Counted from the stretch's first letter, positions 947-53,985 are shown. The stretch is DNA of 64,000 nt from Candidatus Micrarchaeia archaeon (GCA_041659465.1 JBAZYD010000008.1:7484-71483); one strand, 5' to 3'. Numbers and translations are program-made. Notes: generated by a model not told the origin, from the letters alone.

Positions 947-950
947 CTTG

Positions 951-2072
951 ATGCAGATACTACGCCAGACAAAGCTCGAGGCGCTTGAGAAGGCGCGTTC
1001 ATTGGGACCGGAGGCCACCATTGCCCTGATTGGGAAGCGCGGGCTCGAGGGCAGGGGAGGCGCGGCCTATCCCACCGCGAAGAAGTGGAAAACGTGCAGG
1101 GATGCGCCATCCGACGAGCGGTTCGTGGTTTGCAATGCCGACGAGGGCGAGCCAGGCACCTTCAAGGACAAGCTCATCATTCGGCACAATGCGGAGACCA
1201 TGATAGAGGGCATTCTGATTGCGGCGTATGCCGTTGGCGCCAAGAGATGCTTCATCTACCTGCGGGGGGAATACGATTATCTCCGCCCGCGCCTCCAGGA
1301 GCAGATTGACGACGTGCTTGCGCGCGCGAAGACGGAAGGCGTTACCATCGAGATTGTAAGGGGTGCAGGAGCATACATCTGCGGCGAGGCGACCGCGCTC
1401 CTCCAGTCCATAATGGGCTTTAGGGGAAATGCGATGTGCAAGCCGCCCAACCCCACCACGCACGGGCTTTGGGGAAAGCCCACTGTCATCAACAATGTGG
1501 AAACGCTGACGTGCGCGGCGCAGGCGGTCCTTTTCGACGACTGGGATTCCACGCTCCGCCTGTTCTCGATTTCAGGCAATGTCAAGAACCCCGGCGTGTA
1601 CGAGTTCCCGCTTGGCGTGAAGATGTCCACAATCATAGATGTCGCGCGCCCTGAGAAAAAGCTGAAGGCGATGTCGTTCGGCTGCTTCGGCGGGATAATG
1701 CCCGTGGACGAGAACATGTCCGTGACGCCGGAGACCATCAACATGGAAAAGTGCCAGCACGGCGCGTACAGCATCATTTTCATCGACGAGACGAACAATG
1801 TTGTGGATGTCGCGTATTCCATTGCGAAATTCTACACCTACGAGTCCTGCGGCAAGTGCACGCCCTGCAGGGAGGGCACCATGCGCATGCTCAACCTGCT
1901 CAAGAAGGTGCGCTCGGGCAAGGCCGTGAAAAAGGATTTGGAGCTGATGCGCGAGCTTGCTGTGCACATACAGGACACCGCTTTATGCGGCCTTGGGCAG
2001 ACGTGCGGGAACCACATACTGACAAGCCTTGAGCATTTCCCGAAGGATTACGATGCATTCATGAAAAGATAA
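951..2072 (+). CDS. hydB: NuoF/HydB-like flavoprotein subunit (minimal core)
   Basis: Motifs GRGGAAYPTAKKW, CNADEGEPGTFKD and ESCGKCTPCREGT (N3-type 4Fe-4S). The track start at 948 is TTG; ATG lies at 951. No extra ferredoxin domains are present. Confidence 0.9.
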   Translation: MQILRQTKLEALEKARSLGPEATIALIGKRGLEGRGGAAYPTAKKWKTCRDAPSDERFVVCNADEGEPGTFKDKLIIRHNAETMIEGILIAAYAVGAKRCFIYLRGEYDYLRPRLQEQIDDVLARAKTEGVTIEIVRGAGAYICGEATALLQSIMGFRGNAMCKPPNPTTHGLWGKPTVINNVETLTCAAQAVLFDDWDSTLRLFSISGNVKNPGVYEFPLGVKMSTIIDVARPEKKLKAMSFGCFGGIMPVDENMSVTPETINMEKCQHGAYSIIFIDETNNVVDVAYSIAKFYTYESCGKCTPCREGTMRMLNLLKKVRSGKAVKKDLELMRELAVHIQDTALCGLGQTCGNHILTSLEHFPKDYDAFMKR

Positions 2073-2087
2073 ATACCGGGTCATCAG

Positions 2088-23006: not shown

Positions 23007-23055
23007 TTGGGGCTTTTGACCTGAATTAATAAACATGGCTCGCCAATCTGACTGC

Positions 23056-23907
23056 ATGCCAAAAAAACGCGCGGGTTTTGCAGGCAATCTCTGGAATGCC
23101 TGGGTGTGGGTCGCATCAGGCCTACTCCGCGCCCCGTATCTTGCCACTAAATTCTTCATTTGGGCAATGAGCGCTGCCCTGGGCAAAGCGTCTGCGGCAA
23201 GGGAATGTGCAGCGGTAAAATCAAGCAAGCCGCGCACGGGCGCAGTGTATCAGCCGCTTGCGCTCCAAAAACGGCTGGCAGGCAATCTTGACGAATTCGA
23301 GGGGAAGCTGCTGGCGTCAAAAAGCACGATTGGGCTGGTGCTGGGAGCACGGGGGAGCGGCAAGTCGGCACTGGGCATGCGCATACTTGAAAATATTGCC
23401 GCGAAGGGGGGCAGGAAAGTCTGTGCCATGGGCTTTGACGAGTCCGCGCTCCCGGATTGGATACGCCCCGTGCACGGCGTGGAGGAGGTCCCAAACGGCG
23501 CGTTCGTGCTGATTGACGAGGGAGGCATCACTTTCTCCTCACGTTCGTCGCAGTCGCCTGCAAACAAAATCCTGTCTTCATTGCTCCTTGTGGCAAGGCA
23601 CAAGGACCTCTCGGTGCTTTTCATTTCGCAAAATTCCGCCAATCTCGAGATAAACACCATTAGGCAGGCGGATTACCTCCTGATGAGAAAGCCTTCTCTT
23701 CTGCAGAAGGAGTTCGAGCGGAAAAAAATCGGGCAGATTTACGATGAAATAAGCGCGCAGTTTGCAGGCCTGGAAGACACTGGCAGATATTCCACCTACA
23801 TCTATTCAGACGAATTCCGGGGGTTCGCAGCAAACGCGCTTCCGGATTTTTGGAGCCAGAAGGCGAGCAAGTCGTTCGCCGATTTCAAGGCAGGCCGCCC
23901 TAAATGA
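23056..23907 (+). CDS. small FtsK/HerA-superfamily P-loop ATPase (Zot/packaging-ATPase-like)
   Basis: Walker A LGARGSGKSALG, Walker B AFVLIDEGG and the signature VARHKDLSVLFISQNSANL. The start at 23056 fits TATA ttaataaa (23023-23030); the track start is 23035. Confidence 0.65.
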   Translation: MPKKRAGFAGNLWNAWVWVASGLLRAPYLATKFFIWAMSAALGKASAARECAAVKSSKPRTGAVYQPLALQKRLAGNLDEFEGKLLASKSTIGLVLGARGSGKSALGMRILENIAAKGGRKVCAMGFDESALPDWIRPVHGVEEVPNGAFVLIDEGGITFSSRSSQSPANKILSSLLLVARHKDLSVLFISQNSANLEINTIRQADYLLMRKPSLLQKEFERKKIGQIYDEISAQFAGLEDTGRYSTYIYSDEFRGFAANALPDFWSQKASKSFADFKAGRPK

Positions 23908-27119: not shown

Positions 27120-27132
27120 CTAGGTGATATAT

Positions 27133-28197
27133 ATGGAAACAAAAAAAATGCCGTTGCTTTTCGCATTCGCCGTAGTGGCGGCAATCTCGCTTTTTGCCGC
27201 TGGCTGCGCCCAGAATGGCAGTGGTTTGTCTTCAGGCCAGGGAAGGGCGGTGTTCACTGTGGCAGATGCTGCGGCGGACATGGGCACTGTTACAAGCGTG
27301 AAAGTGACTGTGGACCGCCTCGAGGTGCAGCATGCCGCCAGTGGATGGACGACTGTTTCCTCGACCCCGTACACATACGACCTTATGCAGCTTCGGGCAA
27401 GCAAAAGCCAGTCGCTCATGGCTGACGCAAAGCTTGAAGCCGGCTCCTATGGGCAGGTGCGCATGCACATATCCAGGGTGACTGTTACCGATTCTTCCGG
27501 CGAACATGAGGCAAAACTGCCTTCAAACGACCTGAAGATTGTTGGAGGCTTCGAGGTAAAGCCGAATGCAACGACAGTGGTGACCTTTGACTTCCTGGCG
27601 GACAAGTCCGTCCACGTGGCAGGCAATGGCAAGTACATCCTGGCGCCGGTGGTGCGCATGCAGGGGCGGGAAGATGCCGAGGTTGACGCAAGCTCCAGGG
27701 AAGACGTCAAGGTAACCGACGGCAGGGTCAGGACCGACACCGAAGTCGGCATGGATGCCGAGGGCAATGTCGGGGTTGGAGCAGGAATACCTGCAAATGC
27801 CAACATAACAATCGATGGGGGCACCATAGTGGTGCTCGGGCTGCTCCCGCGCGCGTGCACGGCGGATGCAAAGATATGCCAGGATGGCAGCGTGGTGGGC
27901 AGGCAGGGGCCTGATTGCGAGTTTGCAGCATGCCCGCAAGGATGCTCAAAGGAGGCCAAGACCTGCCCGGGCGGCAGCGTGGTGGGCAGGCAGGGGCCTG
28001 ATTGCGAGTTCGAGGCCTGCCCAAAGGAAAACAGCCTGGCAGCATGCATAGCCATTTCCAGCCAGCCTGAACGGCTTTCCTGCATAGCGATGTGGTGCGG
28101 GTCTGAAAACAGGGATTTCAACAAATGCTACAATCTTACAGATGAGAACGACAAGCTCGGGTGCCTGAACAAGTGCAACCCGAACTCGAACATCTGA
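27133..28197 (+). CDS. lipoprotein with DUF4382-like N-domain and two 4-Cys modules
   Basis: METKKMPLLFAFAVVAAISLFAAGC lipobox. The VKVTVDRLEVQ...YDLMQL...GSYGQVRMHISRVTV pattern is followed by ACTADAKICQDGSVVGRQGPDCEFAACP and CSKEAKTCPGGSVVGRQGPDCEFEACP. Confidence 0.65.
   Translation: METKKMPLLFAFAVVAAISLFAAGCAQNGSGLSSGQGRAVFTVADAAADMGTVTSVKVTVDRLEVQHAASGWTTVSSTPYTYDLMQLRASKSQSLMADAKLEAGSYGQVRMHISRVTVTDSSGEHEAKLPSNDLKIVGGFEVKPNATTVVTFDFLADKSVHVAGNGKYILAPVVRMQGREDAEVDASSREDVKVTDGRVRTDTEVGMDAEGNVGVGAGIPANANITIDGGTIVVLGLLPRACTADAKICQDGSVVGRQGPDCEFAACPQGCSKEAKTCPGGSVVGRQGPDCEFEACPKENSLAACIAISSQPERLSCIAMWCGSENRDFNKCYNLTDENDKLGCLNKCNPNSNI
27886..27923 (+). repeat. 38-bp perfect in-frame direct repeat, copy 1
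   Basis: ggcagcgtggtgggcaggcaggggcctgattgcgagtt is identical to 27973-28010 (offset 87 bp, or 29 codons). Confidence 0.9.
27973..28010 (+). repeat. 38-bp perfect in-frame direct repeat, copy 2
   Basis: Identical to 27886-27923. Confidence 0.9.
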
Positions 28198-28463: not shown

Positions 28464-29246
28464 ATGAAGATGATTTTGATGATTGCGGTGCTGTTTGTCT
28501 CGTTGTTTGCATTTGGCTGCACCCAGAATGGGCCTGTTGCTCCGCGCGCGTGCACGGCGGATGCGAAAATATGCCCGGATGGAAGCGCAGTCGGAAGGGC
28601 GGGCCCCAATTGCGAGTTTGCAGCCTGCCCGTCAGGTGGCAACAATACGCCCCCGCCAGGCAACAGCACCACTCCGATAGTGTGCTCATGCCCCAATGAT
28701 CAGGCGCCGGTATGCGGCGCGGACGGCAAGACGTATTCAAATAACTGCTATGCCGCGTGCCTGAATGTGCAGGTGTCCCATTCCGGCAGGTGCGGGTTCG
28801 AAATCTACCCGCCTGCATGCATGGGGGATGCAATTCGCTGCCCTGGCGGCTCGTATGTCTTTAGGGCTGGGCTGGATTGCGCATTTGCAGCCTGCCCGCA
28901 GGCAAATTACACCCTTCCGCCCGCCCCGCCGGCCAACTACACGCTTTATGGGAAGGTGACCATTGGCCCGCTCTGCCCGGTTGAGCCGTGCAGCAGGGTG
29001 TTTGACTATAGCGTGGTGCGCGTGAATGTCTACAACGCCACAAGCAAGGCATTGGTTGTCCAGGCAAGCGCTGCTTCCAGCGGCTATTACGGAGTCAAGC
29101 TCGGGATAGGCAGCTACCTGGTGAATGTGACGGATGCATCGGGCGCATCGTTCGGGCTGCCGCGCCTGGATTACACCCAAGCATTCACAATCGAGAAGGG
29201 GCATTTGGTCCAGATGGACTTTGACATAGACACCGGGATAAGATAG
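28464..29246 (+). CDS. lipoprotein with 4-Cys modules, a Kazal-like domain and a beta-sandwich C-terminus
   Basis: MKMILMIAVLFVSLFAFGC lipobox. It contains ACTADAKICPDGSAVGRAGPNCEFAACP, CSCPNDQAPVCGADGKTYSNNCYAACLNVQVSHSGRC (Kazal pattern, about 28683-28793) and PACMGDAIRCPGGSYVFRAGLDCAFAACP. Confidence 0.65.
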   Translation: MKMILMIAVLFVSLFAFGCTQNGPVAPRACTADAKICPDGSAVGRAGPNCEFAACPSGGNNTPPPGNSTTPIVCSCPNDQAPVCGADGKTYSNNCYAACLNVQVSHSGRCGFEIYPPACMGDAIRCPGGSYVFRAGLDCAFAACPQANYTLPPAPPANYTLYGKVTIGPLCPVEPCSRVFDYSVVRVNVYNATSKALVVQASAASSGYYGVKLGIGSYLVNVTDASGASFGLPRLDYTQAFTIEKGHLVQMDFDIDTGIR

Positions 29247-37752: not shown

Positions 37753-37849
37753 GGGCCCATAGCTCAGCTTGGTAGAGCAGTGGACTCTTATGCTCGCATG
37801 CGCGCGCAGAGCCATCCACGTGTCGTGGGTTCGAATCCCACTGGGCCCG
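37753..37849 (+). tRNA. tRNA-Lys(CUU) with 23-nt canonical (37/38) intron
   Basis: Acceptor GGGCCCA/TGGGCCC+G, D arm GCTC-AGCTTGGTA-GAGC, anticodon stem GTGGA/TCCAC and loop CTCTTA|intron 37791-37813|A. T arm GTGGG-TTCGAAT-CCCAC. The mature tRNA is 74 nt. Confidence 0.85.
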
Positions 37850-39470: not shown

Positions 39471-40625
39471 CTATCTTCCGGCAATTATTTTTATAATATC
39501 CCCGTTTTCAAGCGCGTGCTCAGCGCCCACGCGCAGGTGGCGCCTGCAGTCCACTGCGCCTATGAACTTGTGCGCCAGGTCTGTGTGCACCATCGCGGCA
39601 AGCTGCAGGGCGGTGGTGCCCTTTGGCACGAGATACGCGTCCGGCAGCACCTCTCCCTTGTTGTTCGAGTACTTATGCTCGTCCTCAACAGGGTAGACTA
39701 TGATGCAATTCAGGTGCCGGTAGACTATGTAGTCTATGATTTGCTGCACCCCGCTGCCGCTGTTTGCGGCAAGCACGCGCTTCATGGCAGACAGCGCCGA
39801 AGCCTGCTTCTCGTTCGGTGCCCCCTTGACTGAAAAATCCAGGTCCCCTGGCCTATACTCCACCATACCTGCATGCTCAGCTTTGCGCAGGGCAAGCTCC
39901 ACTGCCGCGCTGCACGGCATGGACGGCCTCCCGGATTCGCGCTTTACCCTCTCGTACCCGTCCCGCGCGCCCGCGATGTCCATCTTGTTGCATGCAACGA
40001 CGATAGGCATCCTCATCTCCACCAGCTTTCTTGCCAGCCGCTTCGCCCCTTCGGCATCCGGCAGGCCCGCAGCCACATCCAGCCCGCACTCAAGCGCAGC
40101 CCTGTGCAGCATTGCCTCTGTGATTTTCAGGCCGGTGAGCGAGCCTGCCAGCCCGGCTGCGCCCTTTCCCTTTGCCCCCCGCGCCATGATGTCGGAAAGC
40201 CACAGCGCTATCTCCTCTTGCAGGAACGCGACTTCCTCGGCGGGCGAGGCTGATTCGCAGGGGTTTCCCTGCAAGTCGGTTTTCCCCGTGGCATCCACCA
40301 CCTGGATGAGCACGTCTGCCTCGCGTATGCTGTCCAGGAACTTGTTGCCCAATCCCTTCCCGGCGTGCGCATCCGGCACCAGCCCCGGCACGTCTATCAT
40401 GCCGACCGGCACAAGGCGCACTCCGCCCGAGCACCTGCTGTTCTTCGGGTTGCACGAGGGCAAGCCCAGCTCAGCATGCGGGCATGGCGCGCGCACATAG
40501 GTGACGCCCCTGTTTGGCGTAATCGTGGTGAAAGGGTAATTCGCAATCTGGACATCCACCAGCGTGGCTGCCGCAAAGAATGTGCTTTTGCCCTTGTTGG
40601 GCGCCCCCACCACGCCGATAAGCAT
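39471..40625 (-). CDS. Obg/YchF-family GTPase with TGS domain
   Basis: GAPNKGKST, YPFTTITPN, DVPGLV, CNKMD and a C-terminal TGS-like segment (LENGDIIKII). ATG at 40625 fits TATA gtttaaaac (40648-40656). Confidence 0.85.
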   Translation of the reverse strand: MLIGVVGAPNKGKSTFFAAATLVDVQIANYPFTTITPNRGVTYVRAPCPHAELGLPSCNPKNSRCSGGVRLVPVGMIDVPGLVPDAHAGKGLGNKFLDSIREADVLIQVVDATGKTDLQGNPCESASPAEEVAFLQEEIALWLSDIMARGAKGKGAAGLAGSLTGLKITEAMLHRAALECGLDVAAGLPDAEGAKRLARKLVEMRMPIVVACNKMDIAGARDGYERVKRESGRPSMPCSAAVELALRKAEHAGMVEYRPGDLDFSVKGAPNEKQASALSAMKRVLAANSGSGVQQIIDYIVYRHLNCIIVYPVEDEHKYSNNKGEVLPDAYLVPKGTTALQLAAMVHTDLAHKFIGAVDCRRHLRVGAEHALENGDIIKIIAGR

Positions 40626-40719
40626 AAGCATATTTTATATGGCTGAAGTTTAAAACATAGCCTGATGAAGCATTATTTATAAACACAAGGATTCTCAAAA
40701 AACCACGCAAAGTGATGCG

Positions 40720-41607
40720 ATGAAACAGGCAATCCCATTGAAGAAATTCGCCGCCGCCCTGTTGATAGCCTCGGTAGTCGGTTGCTCGCCATACCATTAC
40801 GCCAACGTCAAGGCAAGGCAGTATGCAAAGCAGCACCCGAAAACCGGCGTTTCAGTGCACCGGCCGCAGCCCCGCAAGAAAGCAGCGCCGATTTTCCGCC
40901 TGAAGCCCATGATGCCCCTTGTTGAAACAGGCGCTGCCAGTGCCGTCCCGCAGACGCTAATGCCAATAAAAGCCGCGCCAGCGCCGCCTCAGGCGGCAAG
41001 GATGCCTGCAAGCCAAATCCTCTTGGAAATCTACTCCTCCGGGCTGCCCAAGGGAATGGTCTCGCCAGCCTCGCTTGCGGCGGCATACAGCTCCTACTCG
41101 AACGCGGTGATGAACGGCAGCATAAAGAAAGGCAAGTTCGTGGTGGTGGACTTCACAAAGGAAAGCAGCGCAAACCGGCTGGCTGTCGTGGATTTTGAGA
41201 CAGGCGCGTTCTTTGGCGCAATCAAGGTGATGCATGGGTCCGGCAGCGGGGACCTCAAGACGGTTCAGCGGGTCTCGAACATCCCCGGCTCCTATGCAAC
41301 CCCTGGCGGCCTCCTGCGCATCTGCGGCGTGAACGGCGGCTCCTGGGAAGGATGGCTGCTTGAGGGATTGGAGAAGGGGAACAGCAATAGCAGGGAAAGG
41401 GACATCCTTCTGCACATGCTGGACATCCCGCCTGCCAATAGCAGCAAAGGCCCGGATTATCCGACCTATGGCTGCCTGGGCGTCAATTTCGAGGATGCAA
41501 AACGCATAGGCCTGCCTGTGGCGCGCTCCGAGATGACGCGCAGCGTCCAGCAGGAGTGGGTTGGGCGCGGGATTTACGTCTACTTCCCTGGCGGGGCAAA
41601 AAAATGA
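40720..41607 (+). CDS. L,D-transpeptidase catalytic-domain-like lipoprotein (YkuD_2-like)
   Basis: LLIASVVGC lipobox. The pattern VMHGSGSGD...VSNIPGSYATPGG...LLEGLEKGNSNSRERDILLHM...TYGCLGV resembles the YkuD_2 family pattern (HG..SG, FSN..GS, LEGLEKG.N.N, GC). Confidence 0.7.
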   Translation: MKQAIPLKKFAAALLIASVVGCSPYHYANVKARQYAKQHPKTGVSVHRPQPRKKAAPIFRLKPMMPLVETGAASAVPQTLMPIKAAPAPPQAARMPASQILLEIYSSGLPKGMVSPASLAAAYSSYSNAVMNGSIKKGKFVVVDFTKESSANRLAVVDFETGAFFGAIKVMHGSGSGDLKTVQRVSNIPGSYATPGGLLRICGVNGGSWEGWLLEGLEKGNSNSRERDILLHMLDIPPANSSKGPDYPTYGCLGVNFEDAKRIGLPVARSEMTRSVQQEWVGRGIYVYFPGGAKK

Positions 41608-41690
41608 TTTGCGCAGGAAGGGCGGCTGCCACCGTGGCAGCGCCTGCGCCGTTCCGGTGTTGTTAAAAAAACAATGCCCCATATCGCCCT

Positions 41691-44600
41691 ATGCACTCCG
41701 ACGCGCTGCAGCGGAAGGTCCGGGAAGCCGCCTCAAAGGCAAAGGAGGCCCCTGCCAACTTTTCCAAGGAGCACATAGTGGTGACTTATTCTTTCAACGG
41801 AAGGCAGGGCCAGCGGGTGCTCCGCTGCGAGGGCACGGACGCATTCGGCTCAACACTGTATTACGATTATCGGACCAATGCCGTCAAGTCCCTTGAGGCG
41901 CACGCGCGCAGCTGGGGAGTCACGAACCTCAAGGAGACCCATAAGGCAGACCTTGCCAACCTGAAAGCCACCCGGATAGACGCAACCAGCCAGCAGGAAG
42001 AAGGGCGCACGCAAGCGCCGCAGCAGCCGCAAAACAATGCCGACACTTCGCACCGCCCGCCGCGCCAGGCGCCGCCGCAGCCAGGGCAAACACCACAGCA
42101 GTCTCAAAACACCGCCGACACCGCGCACCGCCAAGCGCCCGGCAACGGAAACCAGGGCGTTCCTCCAACCCAAAACCAGCCTGTGCAGCCAGGGCAAAAC
42201 CAGCATCAGCAGCAGCCCGGCAACGGAGGGCAGGGACAGCCTCCCACCCAAAATCAGCCCGCGCAAAGGCCAAGGCAGAGGCGGCCAGCCAGGCAAAAGC
42301 CAGTTGACGGGAAATTAAGCCCAAAAGCAGCAGAGCCCAAAGCCCCGTTCGAGCCGCCGCAGGGCAGGCCCGCCGGCACTGCAAAGACAGACGCGTTTAC
42401 CGAGCTTTCCAGGCCCATGCCGATTTTCGACTATTTCAAGCGCTACTACAGCGGAACAGTCCACTGCGCAAGCTTTGCATGGGGCATATCAATGTCCTAC
42501 CTTTGCGCCGAGCAGGGCCGCTCAGCGGTGATTTTCCCGGTAAGCAGCTGGAAGCTCAAGGATTACCTTACGAACAGGAAAAACAAGGAAATCACAGCAC
42601 TGGTAAAGCAGCTTGACATCCCTGTAAGGACAAACAAGGACTATTACGACATACTCGCCAACACACAAGGCAGGCTGCAGCCTGGCGCGGTAATGACCCT
42701 GGACAGCGGGCATGCGTGGGAGGGCAAGCTGAAAAACCAGCCCACGCACACCATGGTCTATCTCGGATATGGCTACTGGGCCGACAACCGGGATGACAAG
42801 CAGGTAATCAAAGTCAAGTACAGCGAAGCGGTGGCGCGCTCTGGCGATGCCGCGGCATTTTCAGCCCAAGCTGCCAAGGAGACAAAGAACGCGGTCATAG
42901 TCTCGCCTTCCGACCTGCTCGCCCTAAAAAACAACGGCGACTGGCTGCGCAAGGGGAACCATGTGCTTGCGCGCGAGGGCGGGGAATATTTCCTCTACAA
43001 ATGCAGCGACGACGACCTGACCTCCTTCAAGCGGCTGGCGTCCGTGCCTGCAAGCAGCGGGGCGGCAGGGGTTGCCAATGTGATAAACAACCCATGGGTG
43101 GACATGGCGTCCGCGGATGCGAAGAAAATAGGCTCCCTGAAAGAGGGGGAATGCGCATTCCTGTCCCCGCAAATAAACAACCAGTACATATTCAGCAGCC
43201 TGGACGGCGGTGTTGCAAGGTCCATCCGGATGTTCGGCAAGGACGTCTTCACAGGGTTCCAAGGCAACGGGCCGACACCTGTCCAGGGGCTGGACGGCAA
43301 GGACTATTGGGTGAAGCGGGAATTCACCGCCAGCGGCCTGCCTGAAATATGCGTCTATTCCCCGTCAACAGATGTGGTCTACTACATCGTGCAGAAGAAC
43401 GGAGCAAACCTTGGCATCTCGGTGAAAAAGCACTGGTTCCTCGACCGTTTCGAGTGGAGCGGCGGCTCGGGCGTTTACCAGGTGGACATCGACAAGATGC
43501 CCCCCGCGAAGAAACGGGCAATTTCATCCCAGGATTTCGGGCTGCAAAGCGTGACTGCCGAGGGCTTTGCCGCGCTGCTTTCCAAGACATACAGCATCCA
43601 ATTCGAATACGCCCTCAACGAGATAATGCGCCAGAACCCAGCAATACCCTACCCGCGCGCCAAGGTGAGGAGCATTTCCGTCGTCCTTGCGGTTATCCTG
43701 CCTGACGTCAAAATAGGCCGCATCACCGGGCCGATTGAAAGGCTGGAGACGCCTGCGGAGCGCAGGCTGGTGCACGAAATAAGGGACCAAAAGCCCAATT
43801 ACACCCCCAGGGACAAGGAGGAGGTGAACATCAGGAGCGCTGTGATTCTCCGCGGCGACGCATACCTGAAGAGATGCAGCGACATAGACAGCAAGTATTA
43901 CAAGCTCGGCATCATGGCGTCAAACGTGGGCGCGCTCCAGGTGATTCTCTACAACGAGCTTTTCAGCTCGCCAAAGTCGCTTGATGAAAAGTACCGCGAA
44001 CAGGGATTTTTCAGCGACAGGGAAGCCGGGAAATCCCGTGCACGGGAACTGTTCGGGATAGATGGCAATGCAATCGGTGATGCCGTTGCAAAAATCCGGG
44101 GCAAGAACGATTCCCGCCTGGACTCCTGGGGGCCGTTCCAGACCAACATAGACTACGTGCGCTACTACCTGGAAGGCTACCACATGCGCAAGGTGGCCGG
44201 CGGGAAGGAGAAGTACCTGCCCGATGACGCGCTTGGGGCAAAGCGGCGCGAAGAGATTGGCGCCCTCCTGGCAAGCGCAGGCGCAAGCAAGGAAACGCTT
44301 TTCACGCTCAGGAAATATGCCGCATTGCCGCAGAACAAGCGCGAGCTTGTGGCGGACATGCTTTATGATTTCACGTTTGCCCTTTATTTTGCCAACAAGC
44401 TGCTCTCGGAAAACAAAAGCGTGATAGAGGACCAGGCAAAAAAGATCGCCGGCCGGAAATACTGGGGCGCCGACCTTGAGATGACCAGCGTGCTTGCCTA
44501 CAACAGGGGCATAGTAAGGGCAAACACCGCGATATTCCAGCAGAACCTTCTCCTGGTCGGGCAAACCGTCGCTGGCCAGGCAATGGCATCCAAGGACCAG

Positions 44601-45455
44601 GGCGCGCGCGACACGGCGCGCGAGCTTTATTCGACTTTGAAGAAACTGCAGATTGACGGGCTGCTATCCGGGGGCATCCCCACAACAATGGGCTCGCTTC
44701 GCTCCACTATGGACCTATTTCACCCTGGCACGTCGGATTACGGCGGAAAGGAAAGCAACACATTCAAGGCGTTCAAGCTCATCTGCGCGCTAAAAGGGAT
44801 AGGCTATTTCCGCCTGGGCACGAAAACATATGATGCGCAGAAAATGGGCCTTGACGAGTTCGCCCAGGCATTCGGCACAAATGGCAACTACAAGCGGGCG
44901 TTCGAATTCTTTGAATTGCCGCAATTCGCCGAAGGGGATTTCGCGTCCAAAACCGACAAGGGAAACAAGCATCCATACCCCGCCCTCAACTACGCGTTCC
45001 TGAGCAGCGTGTCGGAAAGCAACAAAAAGGCGCTTACGAGCTACCTGGCATCATACATGTTCTACATAAAGCCGGTGGAGGAGGAGCCGCACGGCCCGAC
45101 ATATTCCAGCGCCACCCTGAAGCTCGACAGGTATGATTGGGCAACCGGGAGGGAGTCAAACAAGATAAACATCGCATACACCGTCCCGTATTCCCCCGGG
45201 CTTGGCACCATGAGCGTCTACAACATCAAGGGCGAGAAAGTCGCCACAATATTTGAAAACGCGCGCCAGAACGAGGGCAAGTACCGCAGGGCATCCCCTG
45301 CCCTTCCCCCAGGCGTCTATGCAGTGAAATACACTGTCGGCACGCTGAGCGTGGCGTCCACCATCACCATCCTGCCTTCCTCCGGGGCGGCCAGCGCCCA
45401 GGGCGCGCCCATAGTGTCGCCCACCACCGCAAAGAAAGCGCCCCCGAAAAAGTGA
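41691..45455 (+). CDS. 1254-aa multidomain protein: Q/P-rich repeats, NlpC/P60-like Cys peptidase, possible lysozyme/SLT-like region, FlgD-Ig-like C-terminus
   Basis: Cys motif GTVHCASFAW (Cys259) and His motif PTHTMVYLGYG (His353) preceded by LQPGAVMTL. Later come SWGPFQTNIDY and VLAYNRGI (SLT-like). The C-terminal segment is MSVYNIKGEKVATIFENARQNEGKY...LPPGVYAVKYTVG. No signal peptide was seen. Confidence 0.7.
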   Translation: MHSDALQRKVREAASKAKEAPANFSKEHIVVTYSFNGRQGQRVLRCEGTDAFGSTLYYDYRTNAVKSLEAHARSWGVTNLKETHKADLANLKATRIDATSQQEEGRTQAPQQPQNNADTSHRPPRQAPPQPGQTPQQSQNTADTAHRQAPGNGNQGVPPTQNQPVQPGQNQHQQQPGNGGQGQPPTQNQPAQRPRQRRPARQKPVDGKLSPKAAEPKAPFEPPQGRPAGTAKTDAFTELSRPMPIFDYFKRYYSGTVHCASFAWGISMSYLCAEQGRSAVIFPVSSWKLKDYLTNRKNKEITALVKQLDIPVRTNKDYYDILANTQGRLQPGAVMTLDSGHAWEGKLKNQPTHTMVYLGYGYWADNRDDKQVIKVKYSEAVARSGDAAAFSAQAAKETKNAVIVSPSDLLALKNNGDWLRKGNHVLAREGGEYFLYKCSDDDLTSFKRLASVPASSGAAGVANVINNPWVDMASADAKKIGSLKEGECAFLSPQINNQYIFSSLDGGVARSIRMFGKDVFTGFQGNGPTPVQGLDGKDYWVKREFTASGLPEICVYSPSTDVVYYIVQKNGANLGISVKKHWFLDRFEWSGGSGVYQVDIDKMPPAKKRAISSQDFGLQSVTAEGFAALLSKTYSIQFEYALNEIMRQNPAIPYPRAKVRSISVVLAVILPDVKIGRITGPIERLETPAERRLVHEIRDQKPNYTPRDKEEVNIRSAVILRGDAYLKRCSDIDSKYYKLGIMASNVGALQVILYNELFSSPKSLDEKYREQGFFSDREAGKSRARELFGIDGNAIGDAVAKIRGKNDSRLDSWGPFQTNIDYVRYYLEGYHMRKVAGGKEKYLPDDALGAKRREEIGALLASAGASKETLFTLRKYAALPQNKRELVADMLYDFTFALYFANKLLSENKSVIEDQAKKIAGRKYWGADLEMTSVLAYNRGIVRANTAIFQQNLLLVGQTVAGQAMASKDQGARDTARELYSTLKKLQIDGLLSGGIPTTMGSLRSTMDLFHPGTSDYGGKESNTFKAFKLICALKGIGYFRLGTKTYDAQKMGLDEFAQAFGTNGNYKRAFEFFELPQFAEGDFASKTDKGNKHPYPALNYAFLSSVSESNKKALTSYLASYMFYIKPVEEEPHGPTYSSATLKLDRYDWATGRESNKINIAYTVPYSPGLGTMSVYNIKGEKVATIFENARQNEGKYRRASPALPPGVYAVKYTVGTLSVASTITILPSSGAASAQGAPIVSPTTAKKAPPKK

Positions 45456-45510
45456 CGCTGCCCCTTTGGCTGGCGAGAGCGTTTTAAACCCCTTCATCCC
45501 GACTATTGGC

Positions 45511-46707
45511 ATGGCATCTTCCGGGGGCAAACCGACGCTTTCCTCCCTCATTGGCAACCCGACCGCCATAGCGGCGGCAAGGGCATGGGCGCAGGGCTGG
45601 CAGGACGGGAAGCGGCAGCCACCCCTTCTCATCACAGGCTCCACAGGCACAGGCAAGACCGCGCTTGCTCACGCGATTGCAGGCGAATTCGGCTGGGAGC
45701 TTTTCGAGTTCAACGCATCCGACTTCAGGAACGAGGAAAACGTCACCGCGCTGCTCTCGCACTCCACGACGTCCTCCTCCCTTTTCGGCGGCACGCGCCT
45801 CATCCTGATTGACGATGCTGACTCCCTTTCCGGCACTGCCGACAGGGGCGGGGCAGGCGCAATCGCAAAAGTATTGGCAGGCGCACGCCAGCCAGTCATC
45901 CTGACCGCAGCCGACTACTATGACAGGAAGATGTCCTCGATAAAGGCGCACTGCCAGCAACTTGAGCTCCGCCGCTCGCATGTCTCCACAATCGCGAAAT
46001 TCCTGGGGCGGGAGGCGGCCTCGCGCGGCATTGCGCTTGCAGAAGGCGACGCGGAAAAAATCGCGCAGGCGGCCGCGGGGGACATCCGCGCCGCGCTCAA
46101 CGACCTTGCCGCGCACAACACGTCCGCAAGCCGCGACCGGGAGAAGAACATATTCGACATCATGCGCGACATCTTCAAGGCGGAAAAATACTCCGACGCG
46201 CGCAAGGCGGCGTTCTCATCCGAAGCGGACCACGACACGCTCAAGCTCTGGATTGCGCAAAACCTCCCGACGGCATGTGCCAAGCCGTTTGACCTGGCCG
46301 AAGGCTACAACAGGCTCTCGCGCGCAGACATGTTCGACGGCAGGATAAAGCGCACGCAATACTGGGGCTACCTGCGCTACTCTTCCGACCTGATGACTGC
46401 AGGGGTGTCACTTTCAAAATCATCGCCATCGCAGCAGCACGGCTTTGTGCCATTTGCATACCCGGACTACATCCGCGCCATGGGCTCGTCGAAATCCGCG
46501 CGCACGCTGCGGAAGGGCGCGCTGTCCAAAATCGCGCGCATGTGCCACTGCTCCATTGCGCAGGCTGGGGGCTACCTGCCGCTGTTTGAGCTGGTGGCAA
46601 AAAAGGACGGGGCGGCATTCGGCGAGCTGTTTGACGAGGACGAGCTAGCATTTATAATGAAGAAGGATGCGAAGAAGGCAGCAGCAAGGAAAAAGGCAAA
46701 GGAGTAG
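45511..46707 (+). CDS. rfcL: replication factor C large subunit
   Basis: LLITGSTGTGKTALAHAIA, LILIDDADSL and GDIRAALNDL. ATG at 45511 with TATA ttttaaac (45482-45489) about 22 nt upstream. The track start at 45466 is TTG. Confidence 0.75.
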   Translation: MASSGGKPTLSSLIGNPTAIAAARAWAQGWQDGKRQPPLLITGSTGTGKTALAHAIAGEFGWELFEFNASDFRNEENVTALLSHSTTSSSLFGGTRLILIDDADSLSGTADRGGAGAIAKVLAGARQPVILTAADYYDRKMSSIKAHCQQLELRRSHVSTIAKFLGREAASRGIALAEGDAEKIAQAAAGDIRAALNDLAAHNTSASRDREKNIFDIMRDIFKAEKYSDARKAAFSSEADHDTLKLWIAQNLPTACAKPFDLAEGYNRLSRADMFDGRIKRTQYWGYLRYSSDLMTAGVSLSKSSPSQQHGFVPFAYPDYIRAMGSSKSARTLRKGALSKIARMCHCSIAQAGGYLPLFELVAKKDGAAFGELFDEDELAFIMKKDAKKAAARKKAKE

Positions 46708-50776: not shown

Positions 50777-53104
50777 CTAGGATTCCAGCTTCCCTATTGC
50801 GTACCAACAAGCAAGCGCAACCAGCGCGCCCATGAAAACAAGCGGGTAAAGCCAGCCTGCGGGCTTAGGCTCGAGGGCAATATCGAACTTCCCGCGCGGT
50901 ATGCCGCTAACATAGACTGCATTGTCGTTGCCGTACGATACTGCGCATCCTTCTGCCCCACTGCACGCAAGCGCGCCCGGAAGCGAATCCCGCCTTATCC
51001 TGACTGTGCAGCTGCCGGCCAGGCACTCCCCCTGCACGCTTCCCCTGTCATAATCGAACGAATATCCGTCCAAGCGCGCATCGCCGCTTTCCAGTTTTGC
51101 CGCCCCCACCACGCCATTGAGGGCAAAGAGCCGGTTGCTTCCCCCGTAGGCGATTTCCTCCAGCCGCGTCTCGCTTTTGAAGCCCAGGTATTCCTGCCAT
51201 CTTGTGTTGCCGGATGCGCTGGCGACCAATTTGACATTGCCCAGGAGCAGGTACCTGCAGCGCGCTTTTGCCATTGCATTGATGATGCCATCTGAGGAAT
51301 CAAGCCCCGTGATGGCAGTCCTCTCCAACCCCTCATCGTAAATAGGATACTGGGAAACATCCGTCTTTCCCTGCACGAACACGCACCCATCCCCGGTTAT
51401 CCCGTATGCGGATTGGAGATCGGAATATTCCGCGGCAACGGCAAGCGATGCCGCCTCGTTGTGGTACTGGTCCATGGTGGACAGCGCCGTGGAGGCGAAA
51501 ACCACCGCGAGCGGGGCAAGGATGGCAAGGCAAAACGACACTGTTGCATCCAGCCTGTCGAGCTTCAGGCGCCCCCTGGCCTTTTCCACCCACGCAGCCG
51601 CAAGCTCAAAGGCAAGCAGCGCCCCTGCGCCGGAAATGAAAAAGACCGGCAGGAAAAAGGACGGCATGAACCGCAGGCCATCCATGAAGGGCGCGAGCCT
51701 GTTCATCTCAGGGCTTGTGGCAACGGCAAAGACAAGCGCGCAGGCGGCAAAAAGGAAGAGGAGGAACCTCTCGCGCCTTGAGACTGCCGCGGCCACGCCT
51801 GCGATGAAAAGCAGCGGCAGGATGAAATAGCCCAGCTGGAAAAAGCCCACCAGCGACCAGCCAATGCCCTCGGGGCTCGCCCCTCCCACAGCAGAACTTC
51901 CAAGGCCCCCATCATTGGCGGCAGAAATGGCAAACGGCGCAAGCAGGAATGCGGCTGCCGCTGCGCATGCAATGCCCAGGAGAATCGCCCTCCTGGCATC
52001 CGATGCAACGAGCGAAAGGGCGAGGAGCGCGCCCATCCCGATGGCAAGCGCCATGAATATTCTCTGGTTCGACGCGACTGCAAGCACAAAAAACAGGAGG
52101 GAAAGCCAAAAGCCGCGCCTCTTCCCCTCTATTGCAAATTCATATGCGAACAGGAGCGACAGCAGCGAGAGCGATGTGGCAAGGGTATGCGCGGTCATGC
52201 CGTACATGAACAGGTCCGCGCCTCCGCCCACCACCATGCCCTGGCTTGGGAGGAAAAGGTAAATCAGGGCTGCAAACAGGAAGGTGGCATCCTTGCCCCT
52301 TGACAGCTTGCGCGAAAAAAGCCAGAACACCGCAACCGGCAGGAAAAACAGGAGGATTTCCCAAAGCTTGTAGGCATACTGGCGGCTCGTCCCGGTCAAA
52401 ATATAAATGAGCGACGCAGGCATGGCAGAAAGGAACGTGTACTCTGCGTATGGCCACTGCAGGCGCTGCAGGTGGCTCGCCCCCACCATCACGCGGTGGA
52501 TGTGGAAAGGCGCGTCCACGCCGTAAAACGAGGAAGGCACTGCGGCGTTCGGGCTGGCCCGCCACCCTCCCTCCAGCCTGACGCTGACCGGGGCATCAAT
52601 GTGCGTTTCCATTGCCTTGTCGAAAAACGCGCGCCTGATTAGCCCTGCGCCTGATGGCTCTGCAAGCGCGGCTTCCTTTGCAAAGACCCCGACTGCAACA
52701 TCCCCCTCAGCCTCAACCGGGTAGTCCTTTCCCGCAACGCAGGGCGAGCAGGCAGCCTTCCCGTTCACCGTAATTTTTGTGACATTTGCGGTCTGGTCCA
52801 TGGATGCATAGGAAACTGACGCGACGCGCCCGTTGCCAGAAAACACGGCGCCTGCGCCCATGCCCTGCGCATGCGGCAGCTTGAAAAGAACGGCGTTCCC
52901 GGCAGCATATGCATGGCCGCTTCCGTTTGCCACATCCACTTCCTGGAAATGGAGCCCGGGTTCCAGTGCCCCCAGGCGGACCGCAAAAACAAGGCAGGAC
53001 AGGAGCACAATAATGGCTGGCAGGTTCGCGCCAATCCTCTCCACAATTTCCCTGGAAGGATGAGCCACTGCTTTCCATGCGCGGGGGGTTTTTTTCCCTT
53101 TCAC
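50777..53104 (-). CDS. large polytopic membrane protein, possible GT-C-type glycosyltransferase
   Basis: 775 aa with more than 10 TM helices between two soluble domains. The GTG start overlaps the upstream GT2 stop as GTGA. The functional guess comes from context only. Confidence 0.5.
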   Translation of the reverse strand: MKGKKTPRAWKAVAHPSREIVERIGANLPAIIVLLSCLVFAVRLGALEPGLHFQEVDVANGSGHAYAAGNAVLFKLPHAQGMGAGAVFSGNGRVASVSYASMDQTANVTKITVNGKAACSPCVAGKDYPVEAEGDVAVGVFAKEAALAEPSGAGLIRRAFFDKAMETHIDAPVSVRLEGGWRASPNAAVPSSFYGVDAPFHIHRVMVGASHLQRLQWPYAEYTFLSAMPASLIYILTGTSRQYAYKLWEILLFFLPVAVFWLFSRKLSRGKDATFLFAALIYLFLPSQGMVVGGGADLFMYGMTAHTLATSLSLLSLLFAYEFAIEGKRRGFWLSLLFFVLAVASNQRIFMALAIGMGALLALSLVASDARRAILLGIACAAAAAFLLAPFAISAANDGGLGSSAVGGASPEGIGWSLVGFFQLGYFILPLLFIAGVAAAVSRRERFLLFLFAACALVFAVATSPEMNRLAPFMDGLRFMPSFFLPVFFISGAGALLAFELAAAWVEKARGRLKLDRLDATVSFCLAILAPLAVVFASTALSTMDQYHNEAASLAVAAEYSDLQSAYGITGDGCVFVQGKTDVSQYPIYDEGLERTAITGLDSSDGIINAMAKARCRYLLLGNVKLVASASGNTRWQEYLGFKSETRLEEIAYGGSNRLFALNGVVGAAKLESGDARLDGYSFDYDRGSVQGECLAGSCTVRIRRDSLPGALACSGAEGCAVSYGNDNAVYVSGIPRGKFDIALEPKPAGWLYPLVFMGALVALACWYAIGKLES

Positions 53105-53985
53105 GTCTTCTCCCTCGTCTCGAGCATTTTCTTAAGGGTGTAAAGGTTCAGGCCGATGAGCACCATTATCATGCCCGCGATGCCGAAAAACACGGTGAGG
53201 AACGCAGAGCCGGTGGCAAGCTCGTGCCTCGTGTAAAACGTATCCACCACAAAAATCCCTAGCAGCGCGGAAACAACGAGCATCAGCGTGCCCATGCCTG
53301 CAAAAAGCGCAAGCGGGTTTTTCCTGATGAGCAGGCCTGCAAAATAATCCACGAGCCCCGCGCCCTGCGCGAACGGGTTGTTCTTCTCTGGAAAATATTT
53401 CACGTGCACCGGCACTTCCGCCACCCTCAGGCCCGCATGCTGCGCCGACGATACCATTTCCGCCCCGCCCGCATACCCGTCCGAGGCAACCGCCATCTTC
53501 CCGGCGGCCAATTTTGAAAAGGCACGGAAGCCGCACTGCGCGTCGACCTCCTTTTTCCCGTTGTGCGCGGATGTCAGCTTGTTGATGAATGCCACGCCCT
53601 CGCGCCTCCCGACCGGTGCCGAGACGAATTTCCCAAGGAAGCGCGAGCCTTGGCAAAAGTCCGCCCTTCCTTCAAGCACGGGCTGCGCCACTATCGGAAT
53701 CTCGCCGGCATCGTGCTGCCCGTCAGCGTCAACAATGACAAATGCATCGGCGTCCATCCCACGCGCGGCGGAAAGGGCGCTCTTGAGCGCAGCGCCGTAC
53801 CCTTTGTTTCCCCTATGCGCTATCACGCTTGCCCCTGCTTTGCGTGCAATCTCGGCGGTCCTGTCACCCGAGCCATCATCAATTACGAAAACATCGCCGT
53901 ATTTTTTCGAAAGCAGGACTGAGGAGCCTATGTTCCTCTCCTCATTGTAGGCAGGGATGAAAATTGCGATTTTCCCGCGCGTCAT
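53101..53985 (-). CDS. GT2 dolichyl-phosphate sugar synthase-like glycosyltransferase
   Basis: IFIPAYNEERNIG, VIDDGSGDRT, DADGQHD and two C-terminal TM helices. The ATG overlaps the topA stop as ATGA. Confidence 0.8.
   Translation of the reverse strand: MTRGKIAIFIPAYNEERNIGSSVLLSKKYGDVFVIDDGSGDRTAEIARKAGASVIAHRGNKGYGAALKSALSAARGMDADAFVIVDADGQHDAGEIPIVAQPVLEGRADFCQGSRFLGKFVSAPVGRREGVAFINKLTSAHNGKKEVDAQCGFRAFSKLAAGKMAVASDGYAGGAEMVSSAQHAGLRVAEVPVHVKYFPEKNNPFAQGAGLVDYFAGLLIRKNPLALFAGMGTLMLVVSALLGIFVVDTFYTRHELATGSAFLTVFFGIAGMIMVLIGLNLYTLKKMLETREKT

Follow-up and report, generated by a model that had tools for sequence, protein, structure and literature searches.

Why should an archaeon carry a gene for an L,D-transpeptidase-type enzyme, and what might this enzyme do beside a giant neighbouring protein? 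The question is raised by positions 40720-45455 of a 64,000-nt stretch of DNA from a Candidatus Micrarchaeia archaeon (GCA_041659465.1 JBAZYD010000008.1:7484-71483), which was analysed at its full length and is called the window hereafter. Two open reading frames (ORFs) follow each other on the + strand with a gap of 83 nt, namely ORF 1 (295 aa) and ORF 2 (1254 aa; the giant hereafter), at the positions given by the original prediction, a reading of the sequence that saw in them a peptidoglycan-type enzyme pair formed by a lipoprotein and a multidomain hydrolase. As judged from its sequence, ORF 1 is a true YkuD_2-family enzyme of bacterial ancestry, while the giant founds a family that carries no annotation and is restricted to Micrarchaeota; the only catalytic module that can be assigned in it is a divergent form of a known fold. 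The coordinates of all features are collected in Table 1.

A YkuD_2 lipoprotein of probable bacterial ancestry

ORF 1 matches the Pfam family YkuD_2 (PF13645) at 71 bits, well above the cut-off of 27 (E=1.1e-19), and its residues 113-262 fall on positions 4-155 of the 169 of the profile. The YkuD_2-like pattern had first been read from the motifs HGSGSGD (172-178), SNIPGSY (186-192), LEGLEKGNSNSRERDILLHM (214-233) and TYGCLGV (249-255), all of which are found in the translation. When four archaeal and seven bacterial members are aligned, H172, G173, H232, G251, and C252 do not vary, and the active-site motif reads H232-x19-C252, within ILLHM...T-Y-G-C. ORF 1 thus adds to a known family a member from an unusual host, and its annotation at NCBI is already [quoted passage not shown]. 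The profile search returns at least 4798 bacterial YkuD_2 proteins, mostly of Bacteroidota type, with the named ones from Bacteroidota and an identity of ~30%, against only about eight sequences from archaeal contexts; hence, ORF 1 is best read as an old acquisition from bacteria.

The N-terminus carries the lipobox VVG-C22 claimed beforehand, and the surrounding “GC(S/V)PYH” is kept in six Micrarchaeota orthologues; more distant archaeal YkuD_2 homologues have hydrophobic N-termini. From these features, ORF 1 is predicted to be extracytoplasmic and lipid-anchored via the lipobox Cys, although we know of no study of lipoprotein processing in DPANN archaea. Between the anchor Cys and the catalytic domain runs a P/K/A-rich tether that, according to the alignments, is not present in the compact bacterial YkuD_2 proteins of ~226 aa.

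YkuD_2 has been placed in the clade of E. coli YcbB/LdtD (bioRxiv 10.1101/2020.02.18.954545), and the periplasmic YkuD_2 protein Lpg1697 of Legionella pneumophila is needed for the survival of this bacterium in water (PMC10117105). Bacterial members such as Lpg1697 share with ORF 1 the match to the hidden Markov model (HMM) and the invariant H172, H232, G251, and C252; Lpg1697 is exported (PMC10117105), as ORF 1 appears to be from its N-terminus. Conversely, ORF 1 differs from the bacterial proteins in its archaeal host, in an identity of ~25-30%, in the lipobox and the ~85-residue tether as opposed to a compact periplasmic protein, in a 9-residue insertion after the catalytic Cys, and in belonging to an organism for which no murein is known. 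A literature search found no published work on an archaeal YkuD_2 member.

A giant protein family restricted to Micrarchaeota

A full HMMER scan of 1.84 billion representatives, performed with a profile of the giant from which the Q/P-rich region had been trimmed off, finds 19 family members, and all the identifiable ones are Micrarchaeota. The exact ORF 2 sequence is on record in a 73.8-kb contig named “Candidatus Micrarchaeia archaeon”. An earlier word-indexed search with the full-length giant gave three matches, of which only two are relatives, probably because the Q/P-rich region swamped the candidate list. Among one genome per GTDB species, three giant loci are found, all in Micrarchaeota, and one of the carriers, LFW-35, is “Ca. 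Anstonella stagnisolia” (PMC8561730). The giant is the more widespread gene of the two in Micrarchaeota, often without a YkuD_2 neighbour, a feature that had been missed.

The domain layout derives from family alignments and from two AlphaFold2 (AF2) models, one for the N-half and one for the C-half, with predicted local distance difference test (pLDDT) values of 71 and 77, respectively. The protein starts with a conserved alpha/beta domain with invariant residues K26, H28, Y33, R45, G48, Y57, D59, and Y60, which has no match in Pfam, PDB or PHROG. It continues with the Q/P/N-rich region already described, which is predicted to be disordered (pLDDT<50) and varies in length and sequence among homologues, to the point that tblastn finds no match between orthologues. 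Downstream of a Cys-His-Asp module lies a beta-rich middle part that occurs only in the closer relatives (it is not present in P0015, P0020, P0021, P0024, and P0025) and has no matches in Pfam/NCBIfam segment scans, Foldseek or PHROGs. The N-terminal and middle domains had both escaped the first reading of the sequence. A large helical module and a C-terminal beta-sandwich complete the protein. At E<=1e-3, Foldseek finds no match in the PDB for either model, and in BFVD it finds one for the C-half model, an uncharacterised archaeal-virus protein (2.2e-4, 125 columns).

As noted beforehand, the giant has no signal peptide; it also lacks a transmembrane (TM) segment, the highest 19-residue hydropathy being 1.49. 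The ORF is not extendable upstream, and a mis-called start that hides a signal peptide is rejected, as no start codon lies between the preceding stop and the called start, and the N-terminus is shared by all homologues.

The Cys-His-Asp module

An NlpC/P60-like Cys...His core had been proposed around the motifs HCASFAW (258-264), LQPGAVMTL (329-337), and THTMVYLGYG (352-361), which are all found in ORF 2, as are GPFQTNIDY (814-822) and LAYNRGI (935-941) of the downstream region. C259 and H353 do not vary among 11 sequences, which have D, E, Q or H at position 365 without exception; H258 and H341, named in the same proposal, are not conserved and drop out as catalytic candidates. The AF2 model shows the arrangement of papain and NlpC/P60 enzymes: a helix begins at C259, a strand begins at H353, and D365 belongs to the strand that follows.

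No peptidase family of Pfam is found at E<=10 in the module of any of the 11 members, and membership of the giant in PF00877 is not established. Comparison by hhalign with a reference alignment of E. coli MepS, NlpC, and YafL and of one Bacteroidota NlpC_P60 gene gives a score of 23.5 with P=0.003 and a probability of only ~10%. Both the greedy and the global alignment pair C259, H353, and D365 with C68, H119, and H131 of MepS. Column-shuffled queries score 11.0 +/- 2.1, none of 150 reaching the observed score (z~5.9), and unrelated control pairs score 12-14. Foldseek searches with the N-half model are non-significant (best E=0.39, probability<=0.47), with the top of the list uniformly occupied by papain/transglutaminase-like Cys proteases, including vasohibins, LapG, a Josephin-like clippase, and the CHAP amidase of Gsp synthetase.

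Taken together, triad conservation, model geometry, the hhalign register with its shuffle control, and the Foldseek list make a papain-fold, NlpC/P60-like Cys-His-Asp hydrolase, either a peptidase or an amidase, the likely identity of the module. The proposed NlpC/P60-like core thus holds for the order and spacing of the triad and for the in-register alignment, but not for family membership, given the missing PF00877 match, the weak statistics and the non-significant structural matches. In both proteins, the putative catalytic residues align with those of the known families, with H232 and C252 of ORF 1 invariant and C259, H353, and D365 of the giant aligned with the MepS triad.

Specifically, the giant shares with NlpC/P60 enzymes (PF00877; E. 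coli MepS, NlpC, YafL) the triad order and spacing (Cys ... His-x11-polar), the “PG-hydrophobic strand” and “H-x-x-hydrophobic-Y-hydrophobic-G-x-G” motifs, and the position of the Cys at a helix N-terminus with the His and the third residue on adjacent strands. It differs from them in the lack of an HMM match, in ~40 extra residues between Cys and His, in a third residue that is Asp, Glu, Gln or His, and in the preference of Foldseek, albeit non-significant, for transglutaminase-like proteases. Vasohibins and bacterial LapG (BTLCP), the top matches of the N-half model, have the papain-like Cys/His core in common with the giant, but with E values of 0.39-1.7, TM-scores of ~0.2, and an identity of ~11-13%, and without a parallel in function (tubulin detyrosination and adhesin release, respectively).

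The helical module and the question of a lytic transglycosylase

The mostly helical module is the most conserved part of the giant and the hallmark of its family. Its conserved residues include E756 at a helix C-terminus, S760, G814-x-F816-Q817 in a predicted hairpin, and A-Y-N938-R-G (936-940), together with the motifs F949-Q-Q-N-L953 and IDGxLGxxTxxLFKxVCxxKGI. The series E756...S760, G814-P-F-Q817, and A936-Y-N-R-G940 follows the order and the predicted setting of E-S, G-L-M-Q, and A-Y-N-x-G in E. coli Slt70, MltC, MltD, and EmtA, with spacings 2-3 times those of soluble lytic transglycosylase (SLT) domains. SLT, LysM, PG_binding, and the other lysozyme-type families of Pfam are not found at E<=10 in 12 members, and the family profile gives no match for this module among PDB sequences. 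The top 50 Foldseek matches in PDB and BFVD include no lysozyme-like or transglycosylase structure, for a multidomain query whose list is dominated by the Ig-like tail. Lastly, when an SLT alignment is compared by hhalign, only the AYNRG stretch is covered (P=0.085), and an equally good score is reached in 4 of 150 shuffles.

The SLT/lysozyme-like region of the original prediction consequently finds no backing in Pfam, profile or structure searches and agrees with the known domains in motif order and predicted secondary structure only. In our estimate, a GH23-like domain that has diverged very far has about one chance in three, and the module is not filed as SLT; it probably binds a substrate and is possibly a very divergent glycan-cleaving domain.

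Two further patterns are visible within this module. The (I/V)DGxLGxxTxxLFKxVCxxKGI motif, also present in P0020, P0021, P0024, P0025, and P0027, resembles, as an impression from the motif alone, the “DGxxGxxTxxAVxxFQxxxGL” core of PG_binding_1; it gives a chance-level match to the SAP domain of Ku70 (E=0.19), and in the window protein it is broken by a low-confidence insertion of ~25 residues. At the beginning of the module, a predicted beta-alpha-alpha-beta order formed by AISS, TAEGFAALLSKTY, FEYALNEIMRQN, and ISVVLAVILP is reminiscent of LysM, with no Pfam match.

The C-terminal beta-sandwich

The proposal of a FlgD-Ig-like C-terminal beta-sandwich proves correct as a statement on fold: a seven-stranded immunoglobulin (Ig)-like sandwich is followed by a short A/P/K-rich tail of 27 residues. 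When the segment is searched in isolation, Por_Secre_tail matches below threshold (E=0.0023, 18.6 bits against a cut-off of 27); the same family is above threshold in the relatives P0024 (30.0) and P0028 (30.4), and FlgD_ig is weakly matched in P0013. All real Foldseek matches of the C-half model fall on this tail, with a substrate C-terminal domain (CTD) of the type IX secretion system (T9SS), 8glk_D (TMt 0.68), and DUF3244 (4g5a) among them, and the matches in BFVD are annotated “Secretion system C-terminal sorting domain”. An Ig-like CTD of this type is usual in secreted proteins. The similarity to T9SS C-terminal sorting domains (Por_Secre_tail, PF18962/TIGR04183) concerns both HMM and fold, but a generic Ig-like module is the best reading of this domain, which several members of the giant family do not have. 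To our knowledge, the T9SS is a Bacteroidota machinery that is not known in archaea or outside the Bacteroidota group, and T9SS export of the giant is rejected as a mechanism in an archaeon.

Linkage of the two genes and contrasting evolutionary rates

In four lineages and two genomic contexts, YkuD_2 lies directly upstream of a giant homologue, on the same strand and 56-83 nt apart. The first case is the window; the second is the P0002 contig, which keeps the whole synteny of GTPase, YkuD_2, giant, replication factor C (RFC), and endonuclease genes; the third is the L005/L006 pair. The fourth is a Micrarchaeota metagenome-assembled genome (MAG) from Lac Pavin, in which a giant of 928 aa and ~31% identity lies in MetRS/MCM surroundings, a different context that argues for a real linkage. 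Conversely, the giant has no YkuD_2 gene within its flanks in four lineages (L001, L020, L021, and L025), in two of which (L001 and L020) it directly follows the same GTPase gene, while in two archaeal contigs (L010 and L012) YkuD_2 stands alone and is followed by unrelated genes; the ORFs downstream of these distant YkuD_2 genes were checked as giant homologues and are not. Hence, the “enzyme pair” stands as a recurrent adjacency, but not as an obligate one.

On a bacterial, Bacteroidota-like contig (L007, 4177-8681), the nearest bacterial YkuD_2 gene clusters with Scaffold+YkuD, NlpC_P60, unannotated 408-aa, and PliI-like genes. YkuD_2 lies here within 4 kb of YkuD and NlpC_P60 genes, so that a functional link between enzymes of these types is nothing unusual in bacteria.

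Evolutionary rates, compared as identities between the window and the L005 genome, differ along the locus. Neighbouring genes give 91% (GTPase), 82% (polyprenyl synthase), 74% (TFIIE), and 72% (Cys-rich surface protein), and YkuD_2 gives 69% over its full length and 79% over the catalytic domain. Within the giant, identity is 81% in the N-domain, 49% in the Cys module, 38% in the middle domain, and 41% in the helical module, and the linker is unalignable; the distal part of the giant therefore evolves much faster than the neighbouring genes. Such a conserved N-terminal “anchor” with fast distal domains is what one expects for a surface or interaction protein, and it would also fit relaxed constraint.

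Proposed function

We tentatively favour, at somewhat short of an even chance, a reading in which the two proteins of this non-acidophilic Micrarchaeia genome are cell-surface enzymes that act on peptide or isopeptide bonds of a wall-type polymer, with a foreign target as the preferred one. YkuD-fold enzymes form a Cys acyl-enzyme on a peptide stem and resolve it by transpeptidation or hydrolysis. By analogy, ORF 1 would be exported, anchored to a lipid through the lipobox Cys and held on its flexible tether; Cys252, activated by His232, would attack a peptide bond of the stem, and the resulting acyl-enzyme would react either with an amine, giving transpeptidation, or with water, giving carboxy- or endopeptidase activity. 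The giant would have an “anchor, disordered tether, effector” design, in which the N-domain anchors or recognises, the Q/P linker tethers, the Cys259-His353-Asp365 module cleaves an (iso)peptide or amide bond in the NlpC/P60 manner, and the helical and Ig-like parts bind the substrate surface. What the analysis shows is the family and the intact active site of ORF 1, the conserved Cys, His, and Asp positions and the domain map of the giant, its lineage restriction, the recurring adjacency of the genes, and the contrast in rates; export of the giant, the substrates and the cooperation of the two proteins are what we infer.

The target would be a foreign polymer rather than an endogenous one, for example murein of bacteria living in the same place, or a partner cell's envelope. 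This preference follows from the rate pattern, from giant murein-hydrolase-like proteins in other DPANN archaea (PMC8204110, PMC9723730), from the use of YkuD-fold L,D-carboxypeptidases as antibacterial effectors (bioRxiv 10.1101/2020.02.18.954545), and from the proteinaceous surface-layer (S-layer) envelopes of cultivated Micrarchaeota, whose hosts are archaea (bioRxiv 10.1101/2021.04.28.441871; PMC8784108). Nothing in the analysis shows the action on murein or pseudomurein that was first suggested.

Several observations weigh against this reading. The separate occurrence of the two genes, together with a possible own promoter of the giant, implies that functional coupling is not required, and the lack of a signal peptide, TM segment or known export signal leaves an extracellular location of the giant unproven. 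Pfam and NCBIfam, searched with the whole giant and with six segments, return only the sub-threshold Por_Secre_tail match; PHROGs, searched with all segments and three relatives, return nothing, as do PDB sequence searches with single sequences and family profiles, except for the chance-level SAP-domain (Ku70) match. Consequently, no Pfam, NCBIfam, PHROG or PDB-sequence match backs any enzymatic domain of the giant, the helical module has no detectable relative in Pfam, PDB profile, Foldseek or PHROG searches, and for the Cys module the Foldseek matches are non-significant (E>=0.39) and the hhalign probability is only ~10%. Moreover, no murein or pseudomurein synthesis genes are found within the 64-kb window, and the known hosts of Micrarchaeota are wall-less or S-layer archaea (PMC8784108).

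Rather unlikely, though the most probable of the alternatives, is an endogenous maturation of the envelope, in which YkuD_2 would act like a sortase or a Braun-lipoprotein ligase and, with the Cys peptidase of the giant, would cross-link, trim or anchor the cell's own surface components, with no attack on other cells; candidate substrates are the S-layer glycoprotein or an undescribed peptide-containing polymer, for instance a gamma-glutamyl polymer. Both genes lie among housekeeping genes in conserved synteny and outside mobile elements, the giant marks its lineage and is conserved in several orders of Micrarchaeota, the product of a conserved gene nearby is a Cys-rich surface protein with a membrane anchor, and long tethers suit a space bounded by an S-layer. 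It is also established that YkuD-fold enzymes couple proteins to peptide stems and release them from the stems (E. coli LdtA-C; DpaA, PMC8263019). However, no polymer with D-amino acids or isopeptide bonds is known in Micrarchaeota, whose envelope is described as a proteinaceous S-layer (bioRxiv 10.1101/2021.04.28.441871), YkuD_2 is missing beside the giant in half of the lineages, and the fast distal domains are unusual for a housekeeping maturation enzyme.

It is unlikely that the two genes form no functional pair at all, YkuD_2 being a stray gene that came by horizontal transfer and was inserted upstream of a Micrarchaeota-specific protein with which it has nothing to do, and that the giant is cytoplasmic or released on lysis only, as a scaffold, an adhesin or a regulatory protease of vasohibin/LapG type with no wall polymer involved. 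The giant without any export signal, its solitary position, which is beside the GTPase gene in L001 and L020 but at other sites in L021 and L025, the solitary YkuD_2 of L010 and L012, the possible separate promoter and hairpin between the genes, and the non-wall Cys proteases (vasohibin, LapG, Josephin) that are its best, though non-significant, structural neighbours would all be expected under such a view. Nevertheless, the recurrence of the same order, orientation and 56-83 nt spacing in the unrelated MetRS/MCM context is hard to explain by chance insertion, and both the Ig-like tail of T9SS-CTD type and the anchor-tether-effector design are typical of surface proteins.

Quite improbable is the full model of the original prediction, in which the giant combines an NlpC/P60 endopeptidase with an SLT/GH23 lytic transglycosylase (as in CwlT or PrgK/TraG) and digests murein or pseudomurein together with the L,D-transpeptidase: the aligned triad, the E756/S760, G814-x-F-Q817, and A-Y-N-R-G order and setting of family-1 lytic transglycosylases, and the SLT-bearing giants of Woese- and Pacearchaeota (PMC8204110) are outweighed by SLT and lysozyme-type Pfam models silent in 12/12 members, an empty PDB-sequence profile search, the absence of a lysozyme-like fold from the Foldseek top 50 despite high pLDDT, the shuffle-matched hhalign result over AYNRG, and the stretched motif spacing.

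Returning to the favoured surface-enzyme reading, its most far-reaching version, which we regard as improbable, is that some groundwater or lake Micrarchaeia deploy a lineage-specific surface weapon or tool composed of the YkuD_2 lipoprotein and the signal-peptide-less giant, the latter being exported by an unrecognised route via its N-domain, acting on a peptide-cross-linked wall, and joining a Cys peptidase to a helical catalytic or binding domain of new fold. If so, these Micrarchaeia would either meet murein- or pseudomurein-walled partners, unlike every cultivated relative, or build an undescribed peptide-cross-linked polymer. Unless there is a substrate with D-amino acids or isopeptide bonds, it is difficult to see why a stem-peptide enzyme of bacterial type should be conserved with its active site intact, which points to bacterial or pseudomurein-walled partners or to an endogenous polymer. 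Surface exposure of the giant would, in turn, indicate an unrecognised export or anchoring route in DPANN archaea. Residues 111-295 of ORF 1 and residues 230-380 and 600-1120 of ORF 2 are cloneable targets to address host range and envelope chemistry, and the locus offers specialists of DPANN archaea a testable lead on partner range or envelope chemistry rather than an established mechanism, comparable claims being available for other DPANN lineages.

Comparison with other large or bifunctional wall hydrolases

The giant “murein-like lytic transglycosylase” proteins of Woesearchaeota and Pacearchaeota (fam00969; PMC8204110, PMC9723730) are also DPANN proteins of very large size, each specific to its lineage, for which contact with, or degradation of, the walls of other cells has been proposed. 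They differ in having a recognisable SLT/GH23 domain and in being described as extracellular, whereas the Micrarchaeota giant has no detectable SLT domain or signal peptide, carries a Cys-peptidase-like module instead and is unrelated in sequence; it is therefore not a fam00969-type protein, defined by an SLT domain in a very large extracellular protein of Woese- or Pacearchaeota.

CwlT and PrgK/TraG are conjugation- or phage-associated wall hydrolases that join a muramidase or SLT domain to an NlpC/P60 or CHAP domain in one polypeptide. They represent the combination of a glycan-cleaving domain and a Cys peptidase that was first proposed for the giant. Unlike them, the giant has no demonstrable glycan-cleaving domain and a different domain order, with the peptidase first, and its gene is chromosomal, lies among housekeeping genes in synteny and is not surrounded by mobile elements. 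An origin of CwlT/TraG type, from a mobile element, a phage or conjugation, is rejected, as the housekeeping synteny is kept across genomes and no PHROG matches are found; nor is there any mobile-element signature within the 64-kb window.

Genomic setting

Table 1. Features of the locus and of its surroundings, in window coordinates (res, residues of the encoded protein).
Feature	Position	Strand	Basis or remark
NuoF-like flavoprotein and [FeFe] hydrogenase large subunit genes	948-3752	+	Complex1_51K + NADH_4Fe-4S; Fe_hyd_lg_C
HerA/FtsK-like ATPase gene	11922-13472	-	DUF87, AAA_10, weak TrwB
Weak Zot-like P-loop protein gene	23035-23907	+	
DUF4382 protein gene	27124-28197	+	
Kazal-type serine-protease-inhibitor domain protein gene	28464-29246	+	
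Large ORF, 433 aa	29936-31237	-	no Pfam match
tRNA, 97 nt	37753-37849	+	Rfam, 59 bits
Cys-rich protein gene, 514 aa	37870-39414	-	TIGR04289/TIGR04292, below cut-off
Archaeal YchF-type (YchF-related) GTPase gene	39471-40631	-	neighbour of ORF 1, divergent
Candidate TATA-box-like TTTATAAA	40676..40683	+	37-44 nt upstream of YkuD_2 start; read from sequence
ORF 1, YkuD_2-family (L,D-transpeptidase-fold) lipoprotein, 295 aa	40720..41607	+	Pfam PF13645
Predicted signal peptide with lipobox	40720..40785	+	K-rich n-region, FAAALLIASVV h-region, VVG-C22; pattern [LVI][ASTVI][GAS]C in translation
P/K/A-rich tether, about 85-88 residues	40786..41049	+	alignments
YkuD_2 catalytic domain, res 113-262	41056..41505	+	Pfam envelope
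7-bp palindrome CTGCCAC-C-GTGGCAG	41626-41640	+	ORF 1/ORF 2 intergenic region; read from sequence
TTAAAAAAA element	41663-41671	+	20-28 nt upstream of the ATG of the giant; read from sequence
ORF 2, multidomain protein of a Micrarchaeota-restricted unannotated family, 1254 aa	41691..45455	+	
N-terminal conserved alpha/beta domain, res 1-97	41691..41981	+	alignment; AF2 pLDDT 83-92
Q/P/N-rich low-complexity linker, res 98-228	41982..42374	+	pLDDT 24-31
Cys-His-Asp module, res 236-380	42396..42830	+	alignment, AF2 secondary structure, hhalign
Beta-rich middle domain(s), res ~381-600	42831..43490	+	alignment; AF2 pLDDT 80-93
Large, mostly helical module, res ~601-1120	43491..45050	+	alignment; AF2 pLDDT mostly 85-95
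LysM-reminiscent order, res ~608-675	43510-43720	+	predicted
IDGxLG...KGI motif, res ~985-1040	44640-44810	+	
Seven-stranded Ig-like beta-sandwich (T9SS-CTD / FlgD-Ig / DUF3244 type), res ~1143-1227	45117..45371	+	HMM, Foldseek
Stop codon of the giant to TTG start of RFC	45453-45468		
RFC large subunit gene	45466-46707		neighbour of ORF 2
tRNA-splicing-endonuclease-like gene, 165 aa	46828-47325	+	divergent, sub-threshold Pfam
Large ORF, 775 aa	50777-53104	-	no Pfam match
Glycosyltransferase family 2 (GT2) gene	53101-53985		
tRNA-splicing-endonuclease-like gene, 424 aa	59807-61081	+	strong catalytic-domain match

The archaeal setting of the locus is confirmed by the neighbouring genes for the RFC large subunit, the YchF-type GTPase, and a tRNA-splicing-endonuclease-like protein, and by an intron-containing tRNA; the GC content is even over the region (0.58-0.60). 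The remaining genes of the window are housekeeping genes for an H+-PPase, TFIIE, a polyprenyl synthase, GatDE, topoisomerase I, and an [FeFe] hydrogenase.

The TATA-box-like TTTATAAA sits in the divergent intergenic region common to the YkuD_2 and GTPase genes. Between ORF 1 and ORF 2, TTAAAAAAA and the palindrome may constitute an own, leaderless promoter of the giant, in line with the occurrence of the giant without YkuD_2 in other lineages. At the other end, just 10 nt separate the stop codon of the giant from the TTG at which the RFC gene is called to start; the same gap is ~190 nt in the P0002 contig, so that either the close spacing or the call of a TTG start is peculiar to the window genome.

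The gene for the 514-aa Cys-rich protein keeps its place beside the GTPase/giant locus in L005, L006, and L020; its product combines an N-terminal hydrophobic anchor with a C-terminal domain of an eight-cysteine cluster and is probably a surface protein. The HerA/FtsK-like ATPase and the Zot-like protein are the only candidates within the window for a non-Sec translocation ATPase. The 775-aa ORF, one of two large ORFs with no Pfam match, overlaps the start of the GT2 gene and may be envelope-related.

The tRNA is found by Rfam and missed by ARAGORN, presumably because of its intron, which fits the tRNA-splicing endonuclease genes of the window. Of the two such genes, the divergent one lies beside RFC, and the presence of both suggests, from their sequences, a heteromeric endonuclease. 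A Kazal-type serine-protease-inhibitor domain, rare in archaea, occurs in a protein whose gene adjoins that of the DUF4382 protein. Lastly, the NuoF-like flavoprotein gene lies directly upstream of the gene for the large subunit of a bacterial-type [FeFe] hydrogenase (Fe_hyd_lg_C E=4e-91), which also includes the small-subunit domain, a gene set that is unusual for a DPANN archaeon.

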